A model generated the notes under the pieces. It had not been told where the DNA came from. It searched no databases and saw nothing but the letters and a program-made list of their open reading frames with translations. 64,000 bases of DNA, from assembly GCA_963692865.2 (NCBI GenBank), contig OY843592.1, positions 736,001-800,000 of the forward strand, read 5' to 3'. Source of the stretch: a bacterium. GTDB taxonomy: Bacteria > UBA8248. The position numbers and the translations under genes are program-made. Position 1 is the stretch's first letter, and each line of letters opens with the position of its first letter. This document shows, one piece after another, positions 3,185 through 25,561 of the stretch.

Positions 3185-5016
3185 GCGGGATCGTCGGGAT
3201 CGACCTGGGCACGACGAACAGCCTGGTCGCTTCCGTGTCGGAGGGCGAGCCGGCGATACTCGCGCCCGAGGGCGAGCGCGGCATCGTGCCCTCCGTGGTG
3301 AGCTTTCGCTCCGACCGCGTGCTCACCGGCGATGAGGCGCAGGACGAGCGCGTCTCCAACAGCCGGAACACCATTTTTTCCATCAAGCGATTCATGGGCA
3401 GGGGCTATGAAGACGTGAAGGATGATATGCGCCACCTGCCCTTCGACGCGGACCCCGATGAGCCGGAAGTCGCCCACGTGCTGGCGCAGGGGCGCTCCTA
3501 CAGCGCGCCCGAAGTCAGCGCCCTGGTGCTGAGGCGCCTGAAATCCCGCGCGGAGAAAACGCTCGGCAGGCCCGTTCTCCGGGCGGTGGTGACGGTTCCG
3601 GCGTATTTCAACGACGCGCAGCGCCAGGCGACGAAAGACGCTGGAAAGCTCGCGGGCCTGGAAGTGCTCCGCATCATCAACGAACCCACGGCGGCCTCGC
3701 TCGCCTACGGCCTCCATGAGCGAAACCGCGGCGTCGTCGCGGTCTACGACCTGGGCGGCGGCACGTTCGACATCTCGCTGCTCAGGATCAAGGACGGCGT
3801 GTTCGAGGTGCTCTCCACGGGTGGGGATACCCGCCTGGGCGGAGACGATTTCGATCGGGCGATCTCCCGCCGCATTCAGGAAGAAGTCCTGAAAGAACGC
3901 GGCGTGGATTTGAGCGAAACGCCCGGGGCGCTGGCCGAACTCGCTCTGGTGGCCGAAAACGTCAAGAAGACGCTCTCGGACAGCGAATCTACGGAATATA
4001 TCCTCGAAAACCCCGGCGGCGTCCCGCTCTCTCACAAGGGGAGTCTCACCCGCGAGGAGACGGAAGCGCTCCTCTGGCCCATCGCCCGGCGCACGCTGGC
4101 GCCTTGCAGGCGCGCGCTCTCGGACGCGGGCCTCACGCCCGGGGAAGTGGATGAGGTCGTTCTGGTGGGCGGTTCCACCCGCATGCCCCTCATCCGCCGC
4201 ATGGTGGAGGAGTTGTTCCAGAAAAAGCCGCACGCGGACCTGGACCCCGATGAGGTAGTGGCCCTGGGCGCCGCCGTGCAGGCGGACATCCTCTCGGGCG
4301 GCAGGAAGGACATGCTGCTTCTCGACGTGACGCCGCTTTCTTTGGGCATCGAGACCATGGGCGGCGTGATGGGGTGGATCATTCCGCGCAACACCACCAT
4401 CCCCACGAGCGCCAGGGAGACCTACACCACATTCAAGGACAACCAGACGGGCGTGGACATCCACGTACTCCAGGGCGAGCGTGAACTCGTGAGGGACAAC
4501 CGCTCGCTCGCGCGTTTCCGCCTCGCGGTCGATCCGGCGCCCGCAGGCCTCGCCCGGGTGGAAGTGACGTTTCTGCTCGACGCCAACGGCATCCTGAACG
4601 TTACCGCCCGCGACCTCAGAAGCGGCAAGGCGGCCTCGGTGGAGGTGCAGCCTTCCTACGGGCTGACGGATGAGCAGGTCGAGCGCATGCTCATCGAATC
4701 GTTCGAACACGCCGAGCAGGACATCCGCTCCCGACAGGTTCTGGACGCCAGAACGGAGGCGGAGACCATCCTCATGGCGGCGGCCCGCGCGATGAACGAT
4801 TATGGAGAAGACGTTGTCTCTCCCGAGGAGCGCGCGAAGATTCATGAGGCGGTGAGCGCACTGGAAGAGTCCTGCCGGGGCGAGGACGCAGGCCGGATTC
4901 GCGATATGGTCGACGCACTCAACGAAGTCACGATGCCGCTCGCGGAGCGGATGATGGATAATGTTTTAAAATCTGCCCTGGAGAACAAGAGGGTGAGCGA
5001 AGCCCTCAAAGACTAG
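3181..5016 (+). CDS. hscA: Fe-S chaperone HscA (Hsp70 family)
   Basis: [43 protein letters not shown]; isc context. Confidence 0.95.
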
Positions 5017-5055
5017 AAACCGCGGGGCGACTCGAGCGGAGTGCAGGGGAAGAAA

Positions 5056-5412
5056 ATGGCGAAACTTTATTTCAAGGAAGAGAAACAGACGATAGAGATC
5101 CATGAGGGCGAGAACATTCTCGAAGTGGCGCTTGAAAACGGCTTCGACCTGGATCATGCCTGCGGCGGCGTGTGCGCCTGCTCGACGTGCCACGTGAAGA
5201 TCCGGACCGGAGCGGATTGTTTCAACGAATCCACCGAGGATGAGGAAGATCAGCTCGACGACGCGCGCGACGTGGACCTCGACAGCCGCCTGGCCTGCCA
5301 GGCGACGCTGGAGACCGACACGGACGAGGTCATCGAAATCGAGGTGCCGTTCTGGAACGTGAACCTCGTGCAGGAAGGCCCGGACGCCGCCCGGGAGCAG
5401 CACGCCCATTAG
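5056..5412 (+). CDS. fdx: ISC-type [2Fe-2S] ferredoxin
   Basis: HACGGVCACSTCHV and SRLACQ motifs. Confidence 0.95.
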   Translation: MAKLYFKEEKQTIEIHEGENILEVALENGFDLDHACGGVCACSTCHVKIRTGADCFNESTEDEEDQLDDARDVDLDSRLACQATLETDTDEVIEIEVPFWNVNLVQEGPDAAREQHAH

Positions 5413-21015: not shown

Positions 21016-21978
21016 GTGAGCGACAAGAACCTGCAAGCGATATCATCTGCAAGTCGTCAGATTGCGCTTGTCGGGCGTTCCGGACAACCGTCTCCACAAG
21101 TAGGGAACGAATCGCAAGAACCTCATGTTCGAGTTGACTCGTTGAACAGAGCGCCATTCGAGGCTATTTCTCGCCCAATGGTGATTTGTGGCGATGCCAC
21201 GCAAGCTCTGAAGCTTCTCCCTGAAAAGTCCATTCAAACGGTTGTCACGTCACCGCCCTATTGGTCATTGCGCGATTACGGGGTTGAGGAACAGATTGGG
21301 CGGGACGACAGTCTGCGGAGCTATGTCAAGAGCATCGTTTGCACCTTCGAGCAGATAAGGCGCGTCTTGCGCGACGATGGCACTGTTTGGCTGAACGTTG
21401 GTGATTCCTACACATCCGGCAACCGGAGATATCGTGCGCCAGATCGGAAAAACCGTGCACGCGCCATGTCAGTGCGACCGCCTACGCCAGAAGGACTGAA
21501 ACCAAAAGACTTGATAGGTGTTCCTTGGAGATTGGCGTTCGCTCTGCAAGATGCGGGTTGGTGGGTACGAAGTGAAGTCATATGGCACAAGCCGAATGCC
21601 CATCCGGAGTCCGTTCGAGACCGACCGACCAAAGCTCATGAGACGGTTTTCCTCTTGTCAAAGGACAAGGGCTATTACTACGACCACGAAATCGTCAAGG
21701 GGCCGCGCGACCGTCGCCTGCGAACGGTTTGGGAGATTCCCACTGAACCGGTGAAGCGCGTGAATGGGAAAGCAGATGACCATCCCGCGATGATGCCTCT
21801 CACGCTTGCTCGATGCTGTGTAGCCATTACAAGCCGCGATGACAGTATCGTACTCGACCCGTATGCGGGTTCGGGAACAACGCTTCTGGCGGCGCGTGAA
21901 CTCGGGCGAAGGTGGGTTGGGATTGAAATCAAGCCCGCTTTCGTGGACCTGATTGAACGGCGGTTGTGCGTGTCATGA
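21016..21978 (+). CDS. Beta-class DNA methyltransferase (N4-cytosine type, M.SmaI/M.Cfr9I-like)
   Basis: Motif IV TSPPYW precedes motif I DPYAGSGTT; LNVGDSY...TPEGLKPKDL...PWRLAFALQ...PESVRDRPT matches the M.SmaI/Cfr9I pattern as I recall it; codon usage unlike neighbours. Confidence 0.9.
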   Translation: MSDKNLQAISSASRQIALVGRSGQPSPQVGNESQEPHVRVDSLNRAPFEAISRPMVICGDATQALKLLPEKSIQTVVTSPPYWSLRDYGVEEQIGRDDSLRSYVKSIVCTFEQIRRVLRDDGTVWLNVGDSYTSGNRRYRAPDRKNRARAMSVRPPTPEGLKPKDLIGVPWRLAFALQDAGWWVRSEVIWHKPNAHPESVRDRPTKAHETVFLLSKDKGYYYDHEIVKGPRDRRLRTVWEIPTEPVKRVNGKADDHPAMMPLTLARCCVAITSRDDSIVLDPYAGSGTTLLAARELGRRWVGIEIKPAFVDLIERRLCVS

Positions 21979-22730
21979 CGCTCGATGAACTCAAGGCGAC
22001 TCTCGATTCGTTCTCACCGGTCAAGATCGAATTCGTTGCAAGGGTTATGGAATCTTTGGCGAATCCTCCGAGTGCTAACATTCGATCCAGAGGAACATGG
22101 CTGACAAGCGAGCCGGACTGGATTGAATACTTCGGGCTTGCTTTATCGGTTCACCATGGAGCTACTACTGAGCCGCTGGGGCTCTCGTCGTTTGAGGCGG
22201 TGTTCAGAAACGCTTGTGAGCACCTTGGCTGGCCGATTGATCCTCCGGGCTCACGAACCCGGCGATTCGTTGATATGGTCGTTCGGCCTAAGTCAGGCAA
22301 CCGTCGGCGATTGTCTCTAAAGTCCACTGCCGCCAAGAACTTATCCAGGACAACGTTGCATATTTCCAAACTGACGGAGGCAGCATGGGTTCAGGACGCA
22401 CGTACCGCCAGAGATCGACGAGCCCGTACACTTGAGTTATTCAGGGAATACCAGAGGGCCGTTAAGCAGATAGTCATGCTCCGTGCGTTTCGGGAAGACA
22501 TTGGCAAGATACCGTATAAGTATCAGCTCGTTGAGGTTCCAGTCCGCATCTTTGATTCCATTCAGGAGGTACCGCTGAGAGTCTTTGAACGGGATGCGCC
22601 AGTAATCGAATGTACCGTTGGAGATCGCGTGGTGGCAGTTGTGGCCATCGACCGGTCCGATGCAAAGATTACAGTCCGGCGAGTTCAACTTTCTGCCTGC
22701 ACCGTTCATGTGGAATGGGATAGAGCGTAA
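21975..22730 (+). CDS. Putative type II restriction endonuclease (SmaI-like)
   Basis: ATGA overlap with the MTase. Segments FGLALSVHH, SRTRRFVD...SLKSTAAKNLSRTTLHISKLTE, YQLVEVP and CTVHVEWD resemble R.SmaI from memory (not computed). Confidence 0.7.
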   Translation: MTLDELKATLDSFSPVKIEFVARVMESLANPPSANIRSRGTWLTSEPDWIEYFGLALSVHHGATTEPLGLSSFEAVFRNACEHLGWPIDPPGSRTRRFVDMVVRPKSGNRRRLSLKSTAAKNLSRTTLHISKLTEAAWVQDARTARDRRARTLELFREYQRAVKQIVMLRAFREDIGKIPYKYQLVEVPVRIFDSIQEVPLRVFERDAPVIECTVGDRVVAVVAIDRSDAKITVRRVQLSACTVHVEWDRA

Positions 22731-22808
22731 CGGGGGACGTAGTGCCAGTGAAGTCCGCCGGCGCATCGGCGGGGAATGAAACGCCGCCGTTTATTCACCC
22801 GCACCCGC

Positions 22809-22881
22809 AAATGGATTCCGGCTTTCGCCGGAATGACGGCAGTGGTCGATTCCGACCGATGAGGGGTTTTTCAACAACCCC
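22809..22881 (-). repeat. Right-end copy of the MITE/repeat family
   Basis: AAATGGATTCCGGCTTTCGCCGGAATGACGGCAGTGG...TTTTTCAACAACCCC is an inverted, diverged copy of about 15832-15905. Confidence 0.8.
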
Positions 22882-22972: not shown

Positions 22973-23218
22973 ATGTCGGACGCAGAAGTGACGGTCTATT
23001 CGTCCACGTTCTGAGCGCCGTGCAAGGCGGTGAAAGAGTTTCTTTCCCATCACGGCGTGGCGTATACGGAAAAACTCGTTGATCAGGACGAGGAAGCCCT
23101 GGAGGAACTCTTCCGGCGGGCGAACATGCGGGCCACGCCCGTCATATTCATCGGCGAGGAGAAAGTGGTCGGTTTCGACCGGGCGAAGCTCCAGGCGCTT
23201 TTGGGGCTCGCCGCGTGA
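22973..23218 (+). CDS. Glutaredoxin/NrdH-like selenoprotein (UxxC; Sec at TGA 23012-23014), 81 aa
   Basis: AGGGAG RBS, then MSDAEVTVYSSTF-TGA-APCKAVKEFLSHHGVAY...ATPVIFIG...VGFD. The UGA occupies the first Cys position of the CxxC, and a SECIS-like hairpin follows. The ORF track reports only the part from 23030. Confidence 0.88.
23015..23058 (+). promoter_or_regulatory. Putative bacterial SECIS element for the glutaredoxin UGA
   Basis: Outer stem GCGCCGTG/CACGGCGT, inner stem GAAAGA/TCTTTC (23032-23046), apical loop GTT starting 23 nt after the UGA. Confidence 0.7.
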
Positions 23219-23514
23219 ACGGGAGGCGGAAGACGCTTCCCTGCCCCGGCTGAGGGCAGCGCATACCCGTCCCGTGGGGCGCGAAGCCGCGCGATCTGAT
23301 CGATTGCGAGAACTGAGCGGGCGTCAGGTTCCGCCTGGGCCGGGCGGAGGGGGCGGAAGCGCTCACCGTCGCGCAGATGGTCTCATGCCCCCTTTGCGGT
23401 GAGTACGTTCCGGTGGATGAGGATACCCCGCCAGGCGCCGTCGTGGAGCACGACGGAAAGAAGCTGCGACTCGAAAAAGAGTTCGGCGCGTTCATCCTCA
23501 CGCCTGCGGAGTAG
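23215..23514 (+). CDS. Putative two-selenocysteine tandem zinc-ribbon-like protein (C10xxU13, C31xxU34, C58xxC61, H79), 99 aa
   Basis: GTGA overlap with the glutaredoxin stop. Read-through gives MNGRRKTLPCPGUGQRIPVPWGAKPRDLIDCENUAGVRFRLGRAEGAEALTVAQMVSCPLCGEYVPVDEDTPPGAVVEHDGKKLRLEKEFGAFILTPAE*, with TGAs at 23251 and 23314. Absent from the ORF track. Confidence 0.8.
23268..23281 (+). promoter_or_regulatory. Putative SECIS hairpin after UGA 23251
   Basis: CGTCC-CGTG-GGGCG; 5-bp stem with one G-U pair, loop with GU starting 19 nt after the UGA. Short stem. Confidence 0.45.
23329..23349 (+). promoter_or_regulatory. Putative SECIS hairpin after UGA 23314
   Basis: TTCCGCCTG-GGC-CGGGCGGAG; 9-bp stem with a G-first loop starting 21 nt after the UGA. 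Confidence 0.6.
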
Positions 23515-23646
23515 AGGCGGTTTGTGCGGGAACACAAGCGCAGGGCAAGCAATGGGGGTTATTTTCTTCGCAATGGATTCTTTGATAGAGTGTCTTTGCG
23601 CTCGTGGAGAGCGCATTCAGGGCGATGAAGCGCAAGGGAGCAAGCG

Positions 23647-24039
23647 ATGGCTTCTCAACCGCAGGCCGCTGTCCGACCAGCCCGGATTGGCAAATTGAAC
23701 CGGGATTTGCTCGCGCAATTGAAGGAGTTCGAAAATACTCCCGAGGAGGAGCGCTGGCCGGGCGCAACGTGGCCTACGCCTCAGGCGTTTCGGGACGCGG
23801 AGGCGTTCGTTCGTAAGCTGCCGCTGGATTCGGTTCCCATGCCCGATATAGGGCTGGCCGATGACGGAGAAGTCAATTTTCTGTGGAAAAAAGACGGGGT
23901 TCACGTTGATCTGGGATTTTACGGGACGGGCGCCTACTCCTATTTTGCGCGCGGGAAATCGGGGAACAAAATTTATGAAGAGGATGCTCTCGTATCGGAT
24001 GATTTTCCCGGTGAAATTCTAGCATTGTTCAAAAACTGA
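23647..24039 (+). CDS. Hypothetical protein (possible antitoxin/partner)
   Basis: 130-aa ORF with GGGAG RBS; W-x-G-A...P-x-IG...DGEV..LW pattern; closely followed by the next ORF. Confidence 0.7.
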   Translation: MASQPQAAVRPARIGKLNRDLLAQLKEFENTPEEERWPGATWPTPQAFRDAEAFVRKLPLDSVPMPDIGLADDGEVNFLWKKDGVHVDLGFYGTGAYSYFARGKSGNKIYEEDALVSDDFPGEILALFKN

Positions 24040-24046
24040 CAATACG

Positions 24047-24550
24047 TTGCCGCTCCCAGTATTACACCTCGATGAGTCGAAGAGCGCCGCGCCGGAAATT
24101 TCTCCCGGAATCGTTGAAGACGAAGAACATCTGATTCGCGAAATGTTCAATCCGCAACATATCAACGAAGAAGGGGAAGTAATCGAAAGAGCCATTTCCG
24201 TGAATGAACTGCTTGCAGACGGTTTTTCCGTTCATAGAATACGACATGTTTCGAAGGAATTCGTGGAAAAATCCATACAGGCGAGATTGTCGAGAAAAAG
24301 GAAAGAGCCCTGGACGAGTGAAGGCGTGTCCAGACTAAAGACTCTGGCGGTTCGTCAGATTCTCCTGGACAACGAAAGGGCGTTTGTCGTTATCGATACG
24401 GCCACGGAAGACAATCCCGGACATGCGAGCATCTATTTTGCCGCGCCTCAAAAAGGCAAGGCGTATGCGCGCGATGCGCGTGGTTTCCTTTTGCCGCTTC
24501 TTCAAAACAGGGTCACCCTCGATGAGGCGTATGAGGGCGCAACCGGTTAG
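24047..24550 (+). CDS. Hypothetical protein, possibly RES/ADP-ribosyltransferase-like fold
   Basis: 167-aa AT-richer ORF with LIREMFNP, GFSVHR and DNPGHASI segments; fold assignment is inference. Confidence 0.6.
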   Translation: MPLPVLHLDESKSAAPEISPGIVEDEEHLIREMFNPQHINEEGEVIERAISVNELLADGFSVHRIRHVSKEFVEKSIQARLSRKRKEPWTSEGVSRLKTLAVRQILLDNERAFVVIDTATEDNPGHASIYFAAPQKGKAYARDARGFLLPLLQNRVTLDEAYEGATG

Positions 24551-24604
24551 TCATTCGGAGCAACATTGTATATAATCCCTTTTCCTTAATTTTGGAGATT
24601 CATA

Positions 24605-25561
24605 GTGGCTGAACGCGATTTTGAAATCATCATCATCGGGGCGGGGCCGGCCGGGCTGACGGCGGGGCTGTATACGGCGCGCTCGAAGCTGAACGTGGTC
24701 TGCTATGAAAAACTCGCGCCCGGCGGCGAGATTCTCAACACCGAGCACGTGGAGGACTACCCGGGCTTCGAGCTGGTCGGCGGCCAGGAGCTGGCGGCCA
24801 AATTCGCCGATCACGCCATGAAGTTCGGCCTCAAGATCGAGATGGAGGAAGTCACCGAGGTCAGAAAGGACGGGGACGATTTCATCGTCACGACCGACAT
24901 GGGCGTGCGCCGCTGCGGCGCGGTGATCTACACGCCAGGCGGGCATCCGAAGAAGCTCGGCATTCCGGGCGAGGAGCAATACGCCGGCAAGGGCGTGAGC
25001 TACTGCGCGCTCTGCGACGGCGCGTTCTTCCAGGACGAGGTCATCACCGTAATCGGCGGCGGGAACAGCGCCGTGGAAGAGGGCCAGTTCCTCACGAAGT
25101 ACGGCACGAAGGTCTACATCATCCACCGCCGCGACCAGTTCCGCGCCCATGCGGTCCTGGTGGACAAGATCCGCGAGAACCCGAAAGTCGAGATCATCAC
25201 CGACTACGTGGCCGAAGAAGTCGTCGGCGACGACCGGGAGATGAAGAAACTGCGCATCCGGAACGTCAAGACCGACGAGACGAAAGAGATCGACGCGACG
25301 GGCCTTTTCGTCTTCATCGGTTTTATTCCGAACACGGATTTGATAAAAGATCACGTGGAAAAGGACGATGCCGGTTTCATCCTCACGGACCAGAACATGG
25401 AGACCAACGTTCCGGGCCTGTTCGTGGCCGGTGATTGCAGAAGCCAGTTGATTCGCCAGATCACCAACGCGTCGGGCGACGCGACGACGGCGGCGGTGGC
25501 GGCGGAGAAATATCTCGAAGCCCAGGAAGAGGCCAGGAAACAGGCCGCGGCGGCTTCCTAG
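24605..25561 (+). CDS. trxB: Thioredoxin-disulfide reductase
   Basis: IIGAGPAGLTA, GKGVSYCALCDG (redox CxxC), GGGNSAVEEG, IHRRDQFRA, PGLFVAGD. Confidence 0.95.
   Translation: MAERDFEIIIIGAGPAGLTAGLYTARSKLNVVCYEKLAPGGEILNTEHVEDYPGFELVGGQELAAKFADHAMKFGLKIEMEEVTEVRKDGDDFIVTTDMGVRRCGAVIYTPGGHPKKLGIPGEEQYAGKGVSYCALCDGAFFQDEVITVIGGGNSAVEEGQFLTKYGTKVYIIHRRDQFRAHAVLVDKIRENPKVEIITDYVAEEVVGDDREMKKLRIRNVKTDETKEIDATGLFVFIGFIPNTDLIKDHVEKDDAGFILTDQNMETNVPGLFVAGDCRSQLIRQITNASGDATTAAVAAEKYLEAQEEARKQAAAAS

Follow-up and report, generated by a model that had tools for sequence, protein, structure and literature searches.

Two coupled genes that encode a glutaredoxin-like redoxin (grx) and a small protein with two zinc-ribbon domains (ribbon), both predicted to contain selenocysteine (Sec), were examined in a 64,000-nucleotide (nt) stretch of DNA from a bacterium of the GTDB lineage UBA8248 (assembly GCA_963692865.2, contig OY843592.1, positions 736,001 to 800,000; hereafter the window). 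Comparison with related loci supports the view that the Sec-redoxin and the ribbon protein constitute a conserved two-gene functional unit in several phyla. With regard to function, we see an even chance that the pair acts as a selenol/thiol module for the exchange and carriage of soft metals, most likely mercury (Hg), and that the genus of the window has lost the partner genes of the mercury-resistance (mer) type while its ribbon gene is decaying. An earlier sequence-only reading of this DNA had placed the pair in a redox relay with the nearby thioredoxin reductase gene trxB. The mercury-type context was invisible to that reading, and it makes the handling of a soft metal a likelier function than a redox relay alone.

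The arrangement of the two genes is conserved. In the window they are coupled by a GTGA overlap and both contain in-frame UGA codons, just as the sequence-only reading had described. In all 13 loci of the genus, grx and ribbon overlap by NTGA or abut. Twelve further genomes of the genus carry the pair with an NTGA overlap. It recurs outside the genus too, and the overlap is also seen in L039–L041 and L043. Other genera of the window's family carry the pair in all 11 further loci, one of which (L087) repeats the already counted L051. Among 26 loci outside the genus, grx is located immediately upstream of ribbon in 23, which is the opposite of the unlinked distribution of ribbon homologues and redoxins that the sequence-only reading had considered fatal to its proposal. 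The three exceptions are a locus with grx 1.1 kb upstream (L056), one with an internally deleted grx (L071), and one whose contig begins 78 nt before ribbon (L061). The titles of the distant records name Nitrospinota, Rokuibacteriota/Methylomirabilota, Limnocylindria, Actinomycetota, Myxococcales, Binatia, Deltaproteobacteria, Vicinamibacterales, and Acidobacteria, and adjacent or overlapping grx and ribbon genes are found across at least six phylum-level labels.

The neighborhoods of these more distant pairs give the best indication of function. Of 36 loci outside the genus, 33 have a MerB-, MerE-, or MerT-like gene in the flank according to tblastn searches with proteins from the loci; none was detected at L059, at L066, or on the 3-kb contig L089. 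MerB-like neighbors score 62–100 bits on PF03243 (cut-off 27), and MerE-like neighbors score 35–44 bits on PF05052 (cut-off 22.8). In loci of the Rokubacteria type, a divergent MerR-like gene is followed by MerB-like, grx, ribbon, and MerT-like genes. With genes of the mercury-resistance type around the pair in almost every relative, its probable task is the handling of a toxic soft metal.

The MerB-like genes upstream of the Sec-redoxin have an unusual feature of their own. They carry an in-frame TGA (...S-L-U-T-T-L-N-F-F...) that is followed by about 48 conserved residues, as seen in L057 (5328-5993), L058 (6124-6753), and nine further loci. The putative Sec aligns with the catalytic Cys159 of MerB, and both Cys96 and Asp99 are kept. 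In L058, the stop codon of the MerB-like gene overlaps the start codon of the redoxin gene. The full-length scores fall under the cut-offs for MerB and SaoL, indicating that these proteins form a separate MerB-like branch. No MerA protein was found above the cut-off in five genomes that have the module (best score 411.1 versus 454.45 bits), and the best MerA score in the window genome is 359.2 bits.

One mechanism that could account for this context is as follows. The substrate of the module would be a thiophilic metal, with Hg(II) as the likeliest candidate. The redoxin, through its Sec and cysteine (Cys) residues, would serve as a catalyst of ligand exchange (or of Se–S/S–S exchange) that takes the metal from a donor. 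Possible donors in other phyla are the MerB-like lyase, which has Sec in place of Cys159, and a MerT/MerE-like transporter with its pair of cytosolic Cys residues. The ribbon protein would then keep the metal in a tetra-thiolate/selenolate site, either as a carrier or as a sink, and the pair would substitute for the route through MerA and its NmerA domain. The genus of the window may have lost its MerT-, MerE-, and MerR-like partners, which are still present at this chromosomal site in other genera of the family. Its Sec-redoxin has been retained beside trxB, and TrxB may be the enzyme that reduces it, as in the case of NrdH and Cp9-type redoxins. Among the roles for the ribbon protein offered by the sequence-only reading, that of a metal carrier fits the wider context best, and a pure redox relay is no longer the likeliest.

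Several observations weigh against a metal-handling role. The window genome has no MerB-, MerE-, MerT-, or MerR-like gene, and none was found in 17 loci of the genus. The case for a metal role is thus built on relatives, and this lineage may use the genes for something else. Both the metal and a contact between the redoxin and the ribbon protein are proposed from gene context. Two of the assignments that make up this context have scores below threshold: MerT-like neighbors reach 22–24 bits on PF02411 (cut-off 32.9), and the divergent regulator has as its best match MerR TIGR02051 with 124.9 bits (cut-off 150.85). MerA-like proteins just below the cut-off do exist (411 versus 454 bits), and an importer without a reductase is an incomplete detoxification path. 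Thiol-disulfide oxidoreductases of the TlpA/ResA-like and peroxiredoxin (Prx)-like kinds are also located near the pair in some loci, and these suit a redox function too. Finally, the sample of distant loci is biased. The peptide pattern used for the search required Cys at the second knuckle, so forms with Sec at this position could not be found in other phyla.

A bolder version of the metal-handling proposal is possible, although we consider it tentative. Mercury and organomercurials could be processed by an undescribed route that depends on selenium but not on MerA and has the pair at its core. In such a route, the carbon–mercury bond would be cleaved by the MerB-like lyase with Sec at the Cys159 position. 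The Sec-glutaredoxin would strip Hg(II) from the lyase by selenolate/thiolate exchange, and the tandem ribbon protein (with Cys4 or Cys2Sec2 ligands) would carry or lock the metal for MerT/MerE-like transporters. Organisms that encode MerB without MerA must deal in some other way with the Hg(II) that is produced (Christakis et al. 2021, PMC8261052).

Two known systems resemble the loci of the relatives. A canonical mer operon encodes MerR, MerT/MerP/MerE, MerB, and MerA with its NmerA metallochaperone domain, and the relatives' pair is likewise accompanied by MerR-, MerT-, MerE-, and MerB-like genes. NmerA, to which the ribbon protein may be compared, is small, cytosolic, and rich in Cys, and could accept Hg(II). 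In contrast to the canonical operon, no MerA is present above the cut-off, position 159 of the MerB-like enzyme is Sec, and neither grx nor ribbon belongs to the known mer genes. The second system is the selenocysteine-assisted organometallic (SAO) system of anaerobes, which includes a MerB-like CU selenoprotein and a thioredoxin-like selenoprotein (Haft and Gwadz 2022, preprint, 10.1101/2022.07.06.499078). As presented in that preprint, it combines a MerB-like selenoprotein lyase with a UxxC selenoprotein of the thioredoxin fold and with small metal-binding proteins that are rich in Cys, all of which have counterparts in the loci described here. However, the MerB-like proteins of the relatives score only 51–62 bits on the SaoL model NF040728 (cut-off 140) and have an SL-U motif rather than CU. 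Moreover, their loci are under MerR-type control, and the hosts are not strict anaerobes but bear the labels soil, groundwater, marine, and sponge. No SaoL is encoded in the window, and SAO ABC transporter genes were not noted, although no search was aimed at them. According to the same preprint, mercury resistance was not known to involve any selenoprotein; neither "ribbon" nor "LysW" appears in its text.

Other features were noted in the mer-like islands of relatives. Downstream from the MerT-like gene of L071 (∼2650-2900), a heavy-metal-associated domain reads G-M-T-U-G-A-C, which corresponds to Sec in a metal motif of the MerP/CopZ type. A class I flavoprotein that resembles glutathione reductase is located inside the mer-like island in two lineages (L080:∼3700-5060, minus strand; L041:11065-12081). 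No C-terminal Cys pair is present in this flavoprotein, whose copy in L041 appears to be frameshifted. DNA sequencing runs labelled sponge or coral-reef contain at most 0.45 of the sampled words, and most contain fewer than 0.2. The four runs with almost all of the words bear coded organism names only, and no habitat is claimed from these labels.

The strongest competing explanation is the relay favored by the sequence-only reading, in which electrons would pass from NADPH to TrxB, then to the UxxC redoxin, and finally to the CxxU ribbon protein. The latter would be a redox-switched zinc site or an oxidant sensor whose selenylsulfides are reduced by the redoxin. We consider this explanation doubtful. 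The trxB gene is on the same strand as the pair, as had been noted, and passes the cut-off of its family model. Its translation includes the redox-active C-A-L-C and the sequence HRRDQFR, which we take to be the redox-active CxxC and the NADPH motif, respectively. Within the genus, grx stands beside trxB in 17 of 17 loci that show both genes, even when ribbon has been deleted. Among the 12 ribbon-bearing loci of the genus that have trxB, grx, ribbon, and trxB are contiguous in four (L010, L029, L035, and L038), and in the other eight (the window, L030–L034, L036, and L037) the pair is split from trxB by the two open reading frames (ORFs) orfA and orfB. L039, also from the genus, has no trxB within 7 kb.

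This linkage does not extend beyond the window's family: trxB is near the pair in none of the 24 loci outside it. The other genera of the family have the site between the same conserved housekeeping blocks with the order MerT-like, grx, ribbon, MerR-like, MerE-like, and trxB, the last of which is at the island border in nine of 11 loci (the other two contigs end too early). Contiguity of the three genes where the insert is missing, which the sequence-only reading had proposed to check, is seen in the four loci of the genus, but in sister genera mer-like genes separate ribbon from trxB. Because trxB is found near the pair in only one family and at one site, its adjacency was inherited once and provides no independent support for membership in the system. 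In addition, trxB has its own promoter-like site, and the mer-type neighbors have no role in a pure redox relay. The trxB relay is the weakest part of the sequence-only reading.

The biochemical argument for a relay comes from related redoxins, and the TlpA- and Prx-like genes mentioned above agree with it. NrdH redoxins are substrates of thioredoxin reductase (TrxR). The redoxins of the YruB/Cp9 and NrdH types, which are nearest to grx, are TrxR substrates (PMC3720550 for Cp9), and the cp34-cp9-cp20 operon of Clostridium pasteurianum, which encodes TrxR-like, Grx-like, and peroxiredoxin proteins, provides a precedent for TrxR reducing a Grx-like redoxin (PMC3720550, Fig. 6 legend). The two arrangements share a small redoxin gene of the YruB type that adjoins a thioredoxin reductase gene. 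However, the redoxin of the window is a selenoprotein, and its fixed partner is the ribbon protein and not TrxR. No AhpC/TSA match, and thus no peroxiredoxin beside the redoxin, was found among the ORFs scanned between 21016 and 26132. That TrxB reduces the redoxin is plausible solely by analogy with NrdH and Cp9.

The redoxin could also be a general TrxB-dependent disulfide reductase similar to NrdH or Cp9, with ribbon being an unrelated small zinc-ribbon gene that merely travels along. The pattern of gene loss in the genus is in line with this explanation. The ribbon gene is present in 12 of 22 other genomes and is therefore dispensable, whereas a Sec-grx with one in-frame TGA is present in 20 of the 22. 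Five genomes without ribbon (G001, G002, G007, G011, and G013) keep the Sec-grx beside trxB. Remnants of ribbon are visible in three of these: in G002 (L075) the gene is cut after CPGU, in G013 (L074) a short remnant persists, and in G011 (L076) an internal deletion joins the first knuckle to the C-terminal LEKE..AF motif. In G001 and G007 the gene is absent. The Sec-redoxin upstream of all three remnants (L074, L075, and L076) is intact. The ribbon gene appears to be accessory in this genus and in the process of being lost. Nevertheless, across phyla the two genes have stayed in one order and overlap or are closely spaced, and no ribbon gene was found without an adjoining grx wherever the flank allowed this to be checked. 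An accidental association is therefore unlikely.

The interpretation of both genes depends on how their UGA codons are read. On the basis of comparative sequence data, all three are most likely Sec codons, and the sequence-only reading was right to treat both genes as real selenoprotein genes. Its count of three Sec codons in about 300 nt also agrees with the in-frame TGAs, which span 305 nt. The window genome encodes tRNA-Sec (76.7 bits), SelA (567.2 bits), SelB (391.7 bits), and SelD (334.6 bits), all with scores above the cut-offs. In 19 orthologous loci, positions 13 and 34 of the ribbon protein are occupied by Sec and Sec in eight, Cys and Sec in one, Sec and Cys in five, and Cys and Cys in five. 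A sample of the phylum gave a similar picture: ribbon was present in 30 of 51 genomes, with two TGA codons in nine, one in nine, and none in 12. The ratio of nonsynonymous to synonymous differences (pN/pS), summed over 11 pairwise comparisons within the genus, is 0.46 for ribbon codons 1–34, which include both UGAs, and 0.26 for codons 35–99. In the same comparisons, the other two frames give values of 1.58 and 1.34. Position 14 of the redoxin is Sec in every grx seen beside a ribbon gene, and no Cys orthologue of grx was found among the grx genes of the genus and the more distant loci examined.

Hairpins are located downstream from each of the three UGA codons. The one in grx, which resembles a selenocysteine insertion sequence (SECIS) and reads GAAAGA, loop GUU, and UCUUUC in the window, is present in 36 of 36 grx genes from several phyla. 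In the alignment of this element, 88.9% of cells are paired, compared with a maximum of 69.2% when the partner strand is slid. Two of its pairs have changed on both sides; for example, a Lys-to-Arg replacement (AAA to AGA) is accompanied by a synonymous change from CUU to CUC. The hairpins past both ribbon UGAs have loops 18–21 nt downstream, overlie conserved peptide motifs, and persist in Cys forms, so they agree with Sec insertion but do not decide the matter. The first of these overlies the peptide VPWD and has changed from GUC..GAC to AUC..GAU on both sides in L036 and L039, although the version in the window differs from the minimum-energy fold given by RNAfold. The second is kept within the genus, including in recent Cys forms.

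If the UGAs were instead plain stops, the region would consist of short or dead ORFs. Public protein sets do contain only ribbon forms of 63–75 residues that start after a UGA, which means that the full-length genes went unannotated. This explanation is nevertheless very improbable given the Cys orthologues at exactly these codons, the purifying selection that extends across the UGAs, the full Sec machinery, and the conserved hairpins. Two other candidates were rejected. Sec read-through of the grx stop codon was considered, but the residues beyond it are not conserved. An antisense ORF at 23148-23552 is regarded as an artefact of high GC content.

Contigs from RNA libraries of relatives span grx into ribbon (X23 record 26, 22985-23310; X20/X21 record 4, 23157-23399). 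Such libraries can contain DNA, and this bridging is therefore a weak hint of transcription; positions that no contig covers are uninformative. Runs X20 and X21 are filed under different studies but have identical contigs and figures, and should be counted as one data set. A single TGA lies in frame in the selD gene of the window genome (G000:C1:65915-66877), which makes SelD another probable selenoprotein. Two matches to tRNA-Sec with identical scores (G000:C1:1207504-1207596 and G000:C4:29719-29811) could represent a real duplication or an assembly duplicate.

The ribbon protein is predicted to comprise two LysW-like zinc-ribbon domains. The first includes C10-P-G-U13 and C31-E-N-U34, such that two Cys-x-x-Sec motifs would provide its metal ligands, and the second includes C58-P-L-C61 and H79-D. 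The only family matches are to LysW-type models, and these occur in two stretches with scores of 26.6 bits on PF21344 (cut-off 27) and 40.6 bits on NF041070 (cut-off 75). The closest relative in the PDB is Sulfolobus LysW (3vpb_E, E 9.8e-6), which aligns with domain 2, including the His ligand. A profile search of 1.84 billion representatives returned 90 proteins at E ≤ 0.001, which indicates a small family, and 38 of these have E ≤ 1e-10. The Atlas clusters closest to an all-Cys ribbon homologue are LysW-like proteins of Rokuibacteriota and Methylomirabilota. None of the selenoprotein models in NCBIfam matches the ribbon protein. The main text of a 2026 review of prokaryotic selenoproteins (PMC13188914), Table 1 included, has no entry for "ribbon" or "LysW". 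That table does list an FmdB-family zinc-ribbon protein (TIGR02605) as a predicted UxxU selenoprotein. Like the ribbon protein, it is a small zinc ribbon with Sec in the knuckles, but its UxxU is inside one knuckle, and the NCBIfam matches obtained for the ribbon protein at E ≤ 0.01 do not include TIGR02605.

The LysW matches raise the question of whether the ribbon protein is an amino-group carrier protein of the LysW/ArgW type. LysW and ArgW have an acidic EDWGE motif as their tail, and the C-terminal Glu carries the substrate. The ribbon proteins of the genus also terminate in Glu, and the globular zinc-ribbon domain and CPxCG knuckle of LysW/ArgW (3vpb_E, 5k2m_E, and 3wwl_A) resemble theirs. 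However, both family scores are under the cut-offs, the protein is a tandem with Sec ligands, and its C-terminus (...FILTPAE in the window) lacks an acidic EDWGE-type tail and is not conserved outside the genus. The gene context differs as well. The partner gene encodes a redoxin and not an ATP-grasp ligase, and no LysX is found above the cut-off in the window genome, where the best match to TIGR02144 (137.9 versus 275.6 bits) is located about 150 kb from the window. With the profile score, the acidic tail, and the LysX/ArgX partner that define these carriers all missing, this identification was rejected as exceedingly improbable.

The redoxin is a predicted glutaredoxin-fold protein with a Sec-x-x-Cys site. 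It scores 57.5 bits on PF00462 (gathering cut-off 22.9), and its U14-A-P-C17 sequence aligns with the CxxC-type site at the start of helix 1, where both positions (reading U as C) are invariant in 23 sequences. Its best NCBIfam match is YruB (TIGR02196) with 79.9 bits, which is under the cut-off of 88.55, and its score on NrdH (TIGR02194) is 50.7 bits, also under the cut-off of 85.75. The redoxin is therefore assigned to a putative new subfamily nearest to the YruB and NrdH types but under both cut-offs. Selenoprotein glutaredoxins have been described previously. Table 1 of the review cited above (PMC13188914) lists Grx (UxxC) and cites, as reference 85, the enzyme of Clostridium oremlandii. 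These proteins share with the window redoxin the PF00462 fold and the replacement of the first Cys of CxxC by Sec. The redoxin described here differs in being nearest to the YruB/NrdH types, in having Sec in every copy seen, and in always being paired with a zinc-ribbon gene. No published description of the redoxin–ribbon pair was found in literature searches on selenoproteins, mer genes, and zinc ribbons, although supplements may hold gene lists that include it.

Table 1. Positions of the redoxin–ribbon pair and of downstream features in the window.
Feature	Position	Strand	Description
grx	22973..23218	+	Glutaredoxin-like selenoprotein (predicted), 81 amino acids (aa); ATG at 22973, TGA stop at 23216-18; active site U14-A-P-C17
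grx Sec codon 14	23012..23014	+	TGA; aligns with the first Cys of CxxC in the glutaredoxin profile
grx SECIS-like hairpin	23029..23049	+	GGUGAAAGA / GUU / UCUUUCCCA; loop begins 23 nt past the UGA
GTGA overlap	23215..23218	+	GTG start of ribbon shared with the TGA stop of grx
ribbon	23215..23514	+	GTG at 23215 to TAG at 23512-14; 99-aa tandem LysW-like zinc-ribbon selenoprotein (predicted)
ribbon Sec codon 13	23251..23253	+	TGA in CPGU; orthologous loci: U 13/19, C 6/19
Hairpin past first ribbon UGA	23268..23281	+	CGUCC / CGUG / GGGCG; read by eye
ribbon Sec codon 34	23314..23316	+	TGA in CENU; orthologous loci: U 9/19, C 10/19
Hairpin past second ribbon UGA	23329..23349	+	UUCCGCCUG / GGC / CGGGCGGAG; RNAfold of 48 nt
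orfA	23647..24039	+	130 aa; first ORF of the low-GC insert; outside the module
orfB	24047..24550	+	167 aa; second ORF of the low-GC insert; outside the module
Promoter-like site	24548..24576	+	TAGTCA-17-TATAAT, 10/12 consensus match only; just upstream of trxB
trxB	24605..25561	+	Low-Mr thioredoxin-disulfide reductase; TIGR01292 362.2 bits versus cut-off 343.45

The remaining features of the locus are located outside of the module. The AT-richer block of two ORFs that had been noted between the pair and trxB has a GC content of 0.47–0.53, compared with 0.64–0.69 over grx and ribbon. The GC contents at third codon positions (GC3) are 0.58 for orfA and 0.53 for orfB, versus 0.77–0.91 in the neighboring native genes. 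Neither ORF matches a family in Pfam, NCBIfam, PADLOC, or PHROGs, and the Atlas matches are clusters of "hypothetical protein" only. Copies of the orfA/orfB cassette in relatives are 59–98% identical to that of the window, which is below the identity of the flanking genes, and the cassette is also present in two genomes that have lost ribbon.

Upstream of grx, an N4/N6 DNA methyltransferase ORF (PF01555, 161.5 bits) and a SmaI-like endonuclease ORF (PF17411, 23.7 bits, under the cut-off) occupy positions 21016-22730. These ORFs have GC3 values of 0.56 and 0.54, are inserted between the conserved upstream block and grx, and are missing from this location in relatives of the genus. A short palindromic element that resembles a repetitive extragenic palindrome is located just upstream of grx at 22806-22845. 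Contigs from RNA libraries stack on positions 22812-22840 with a summed depth of up to 488. These contigs are mostly 31 letters long and probably derive from many organisms.

The pair marks a putative selenium-rich, MerA-less variant of mercury-type gene clusters, and the ribbon protein apparently represents an uncatalogued selenoprotein family in which Sec would serve as a metal ligand. The fixed ribbon partner would give a selenoprotein glutaredoxin a concrete candidate client. If the mercury function is true, then the pair together with the Sec-bearing MerB-like lyase would offer a possible answer to the question of how organisms manage with MerB in the absence of MerA, and this answer would apply to MerR-controlled clusters in several uncultured phyla. 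These proteins would also be the first selenoproteins in mercury resistance, and the ribbon protein would be the first zinc-ribbon selenoprotein with a defined role. Three or four small proteins would then be enough to put the mercury–selenium chemistry of environmental and symbiotic bacteria to a direct test.

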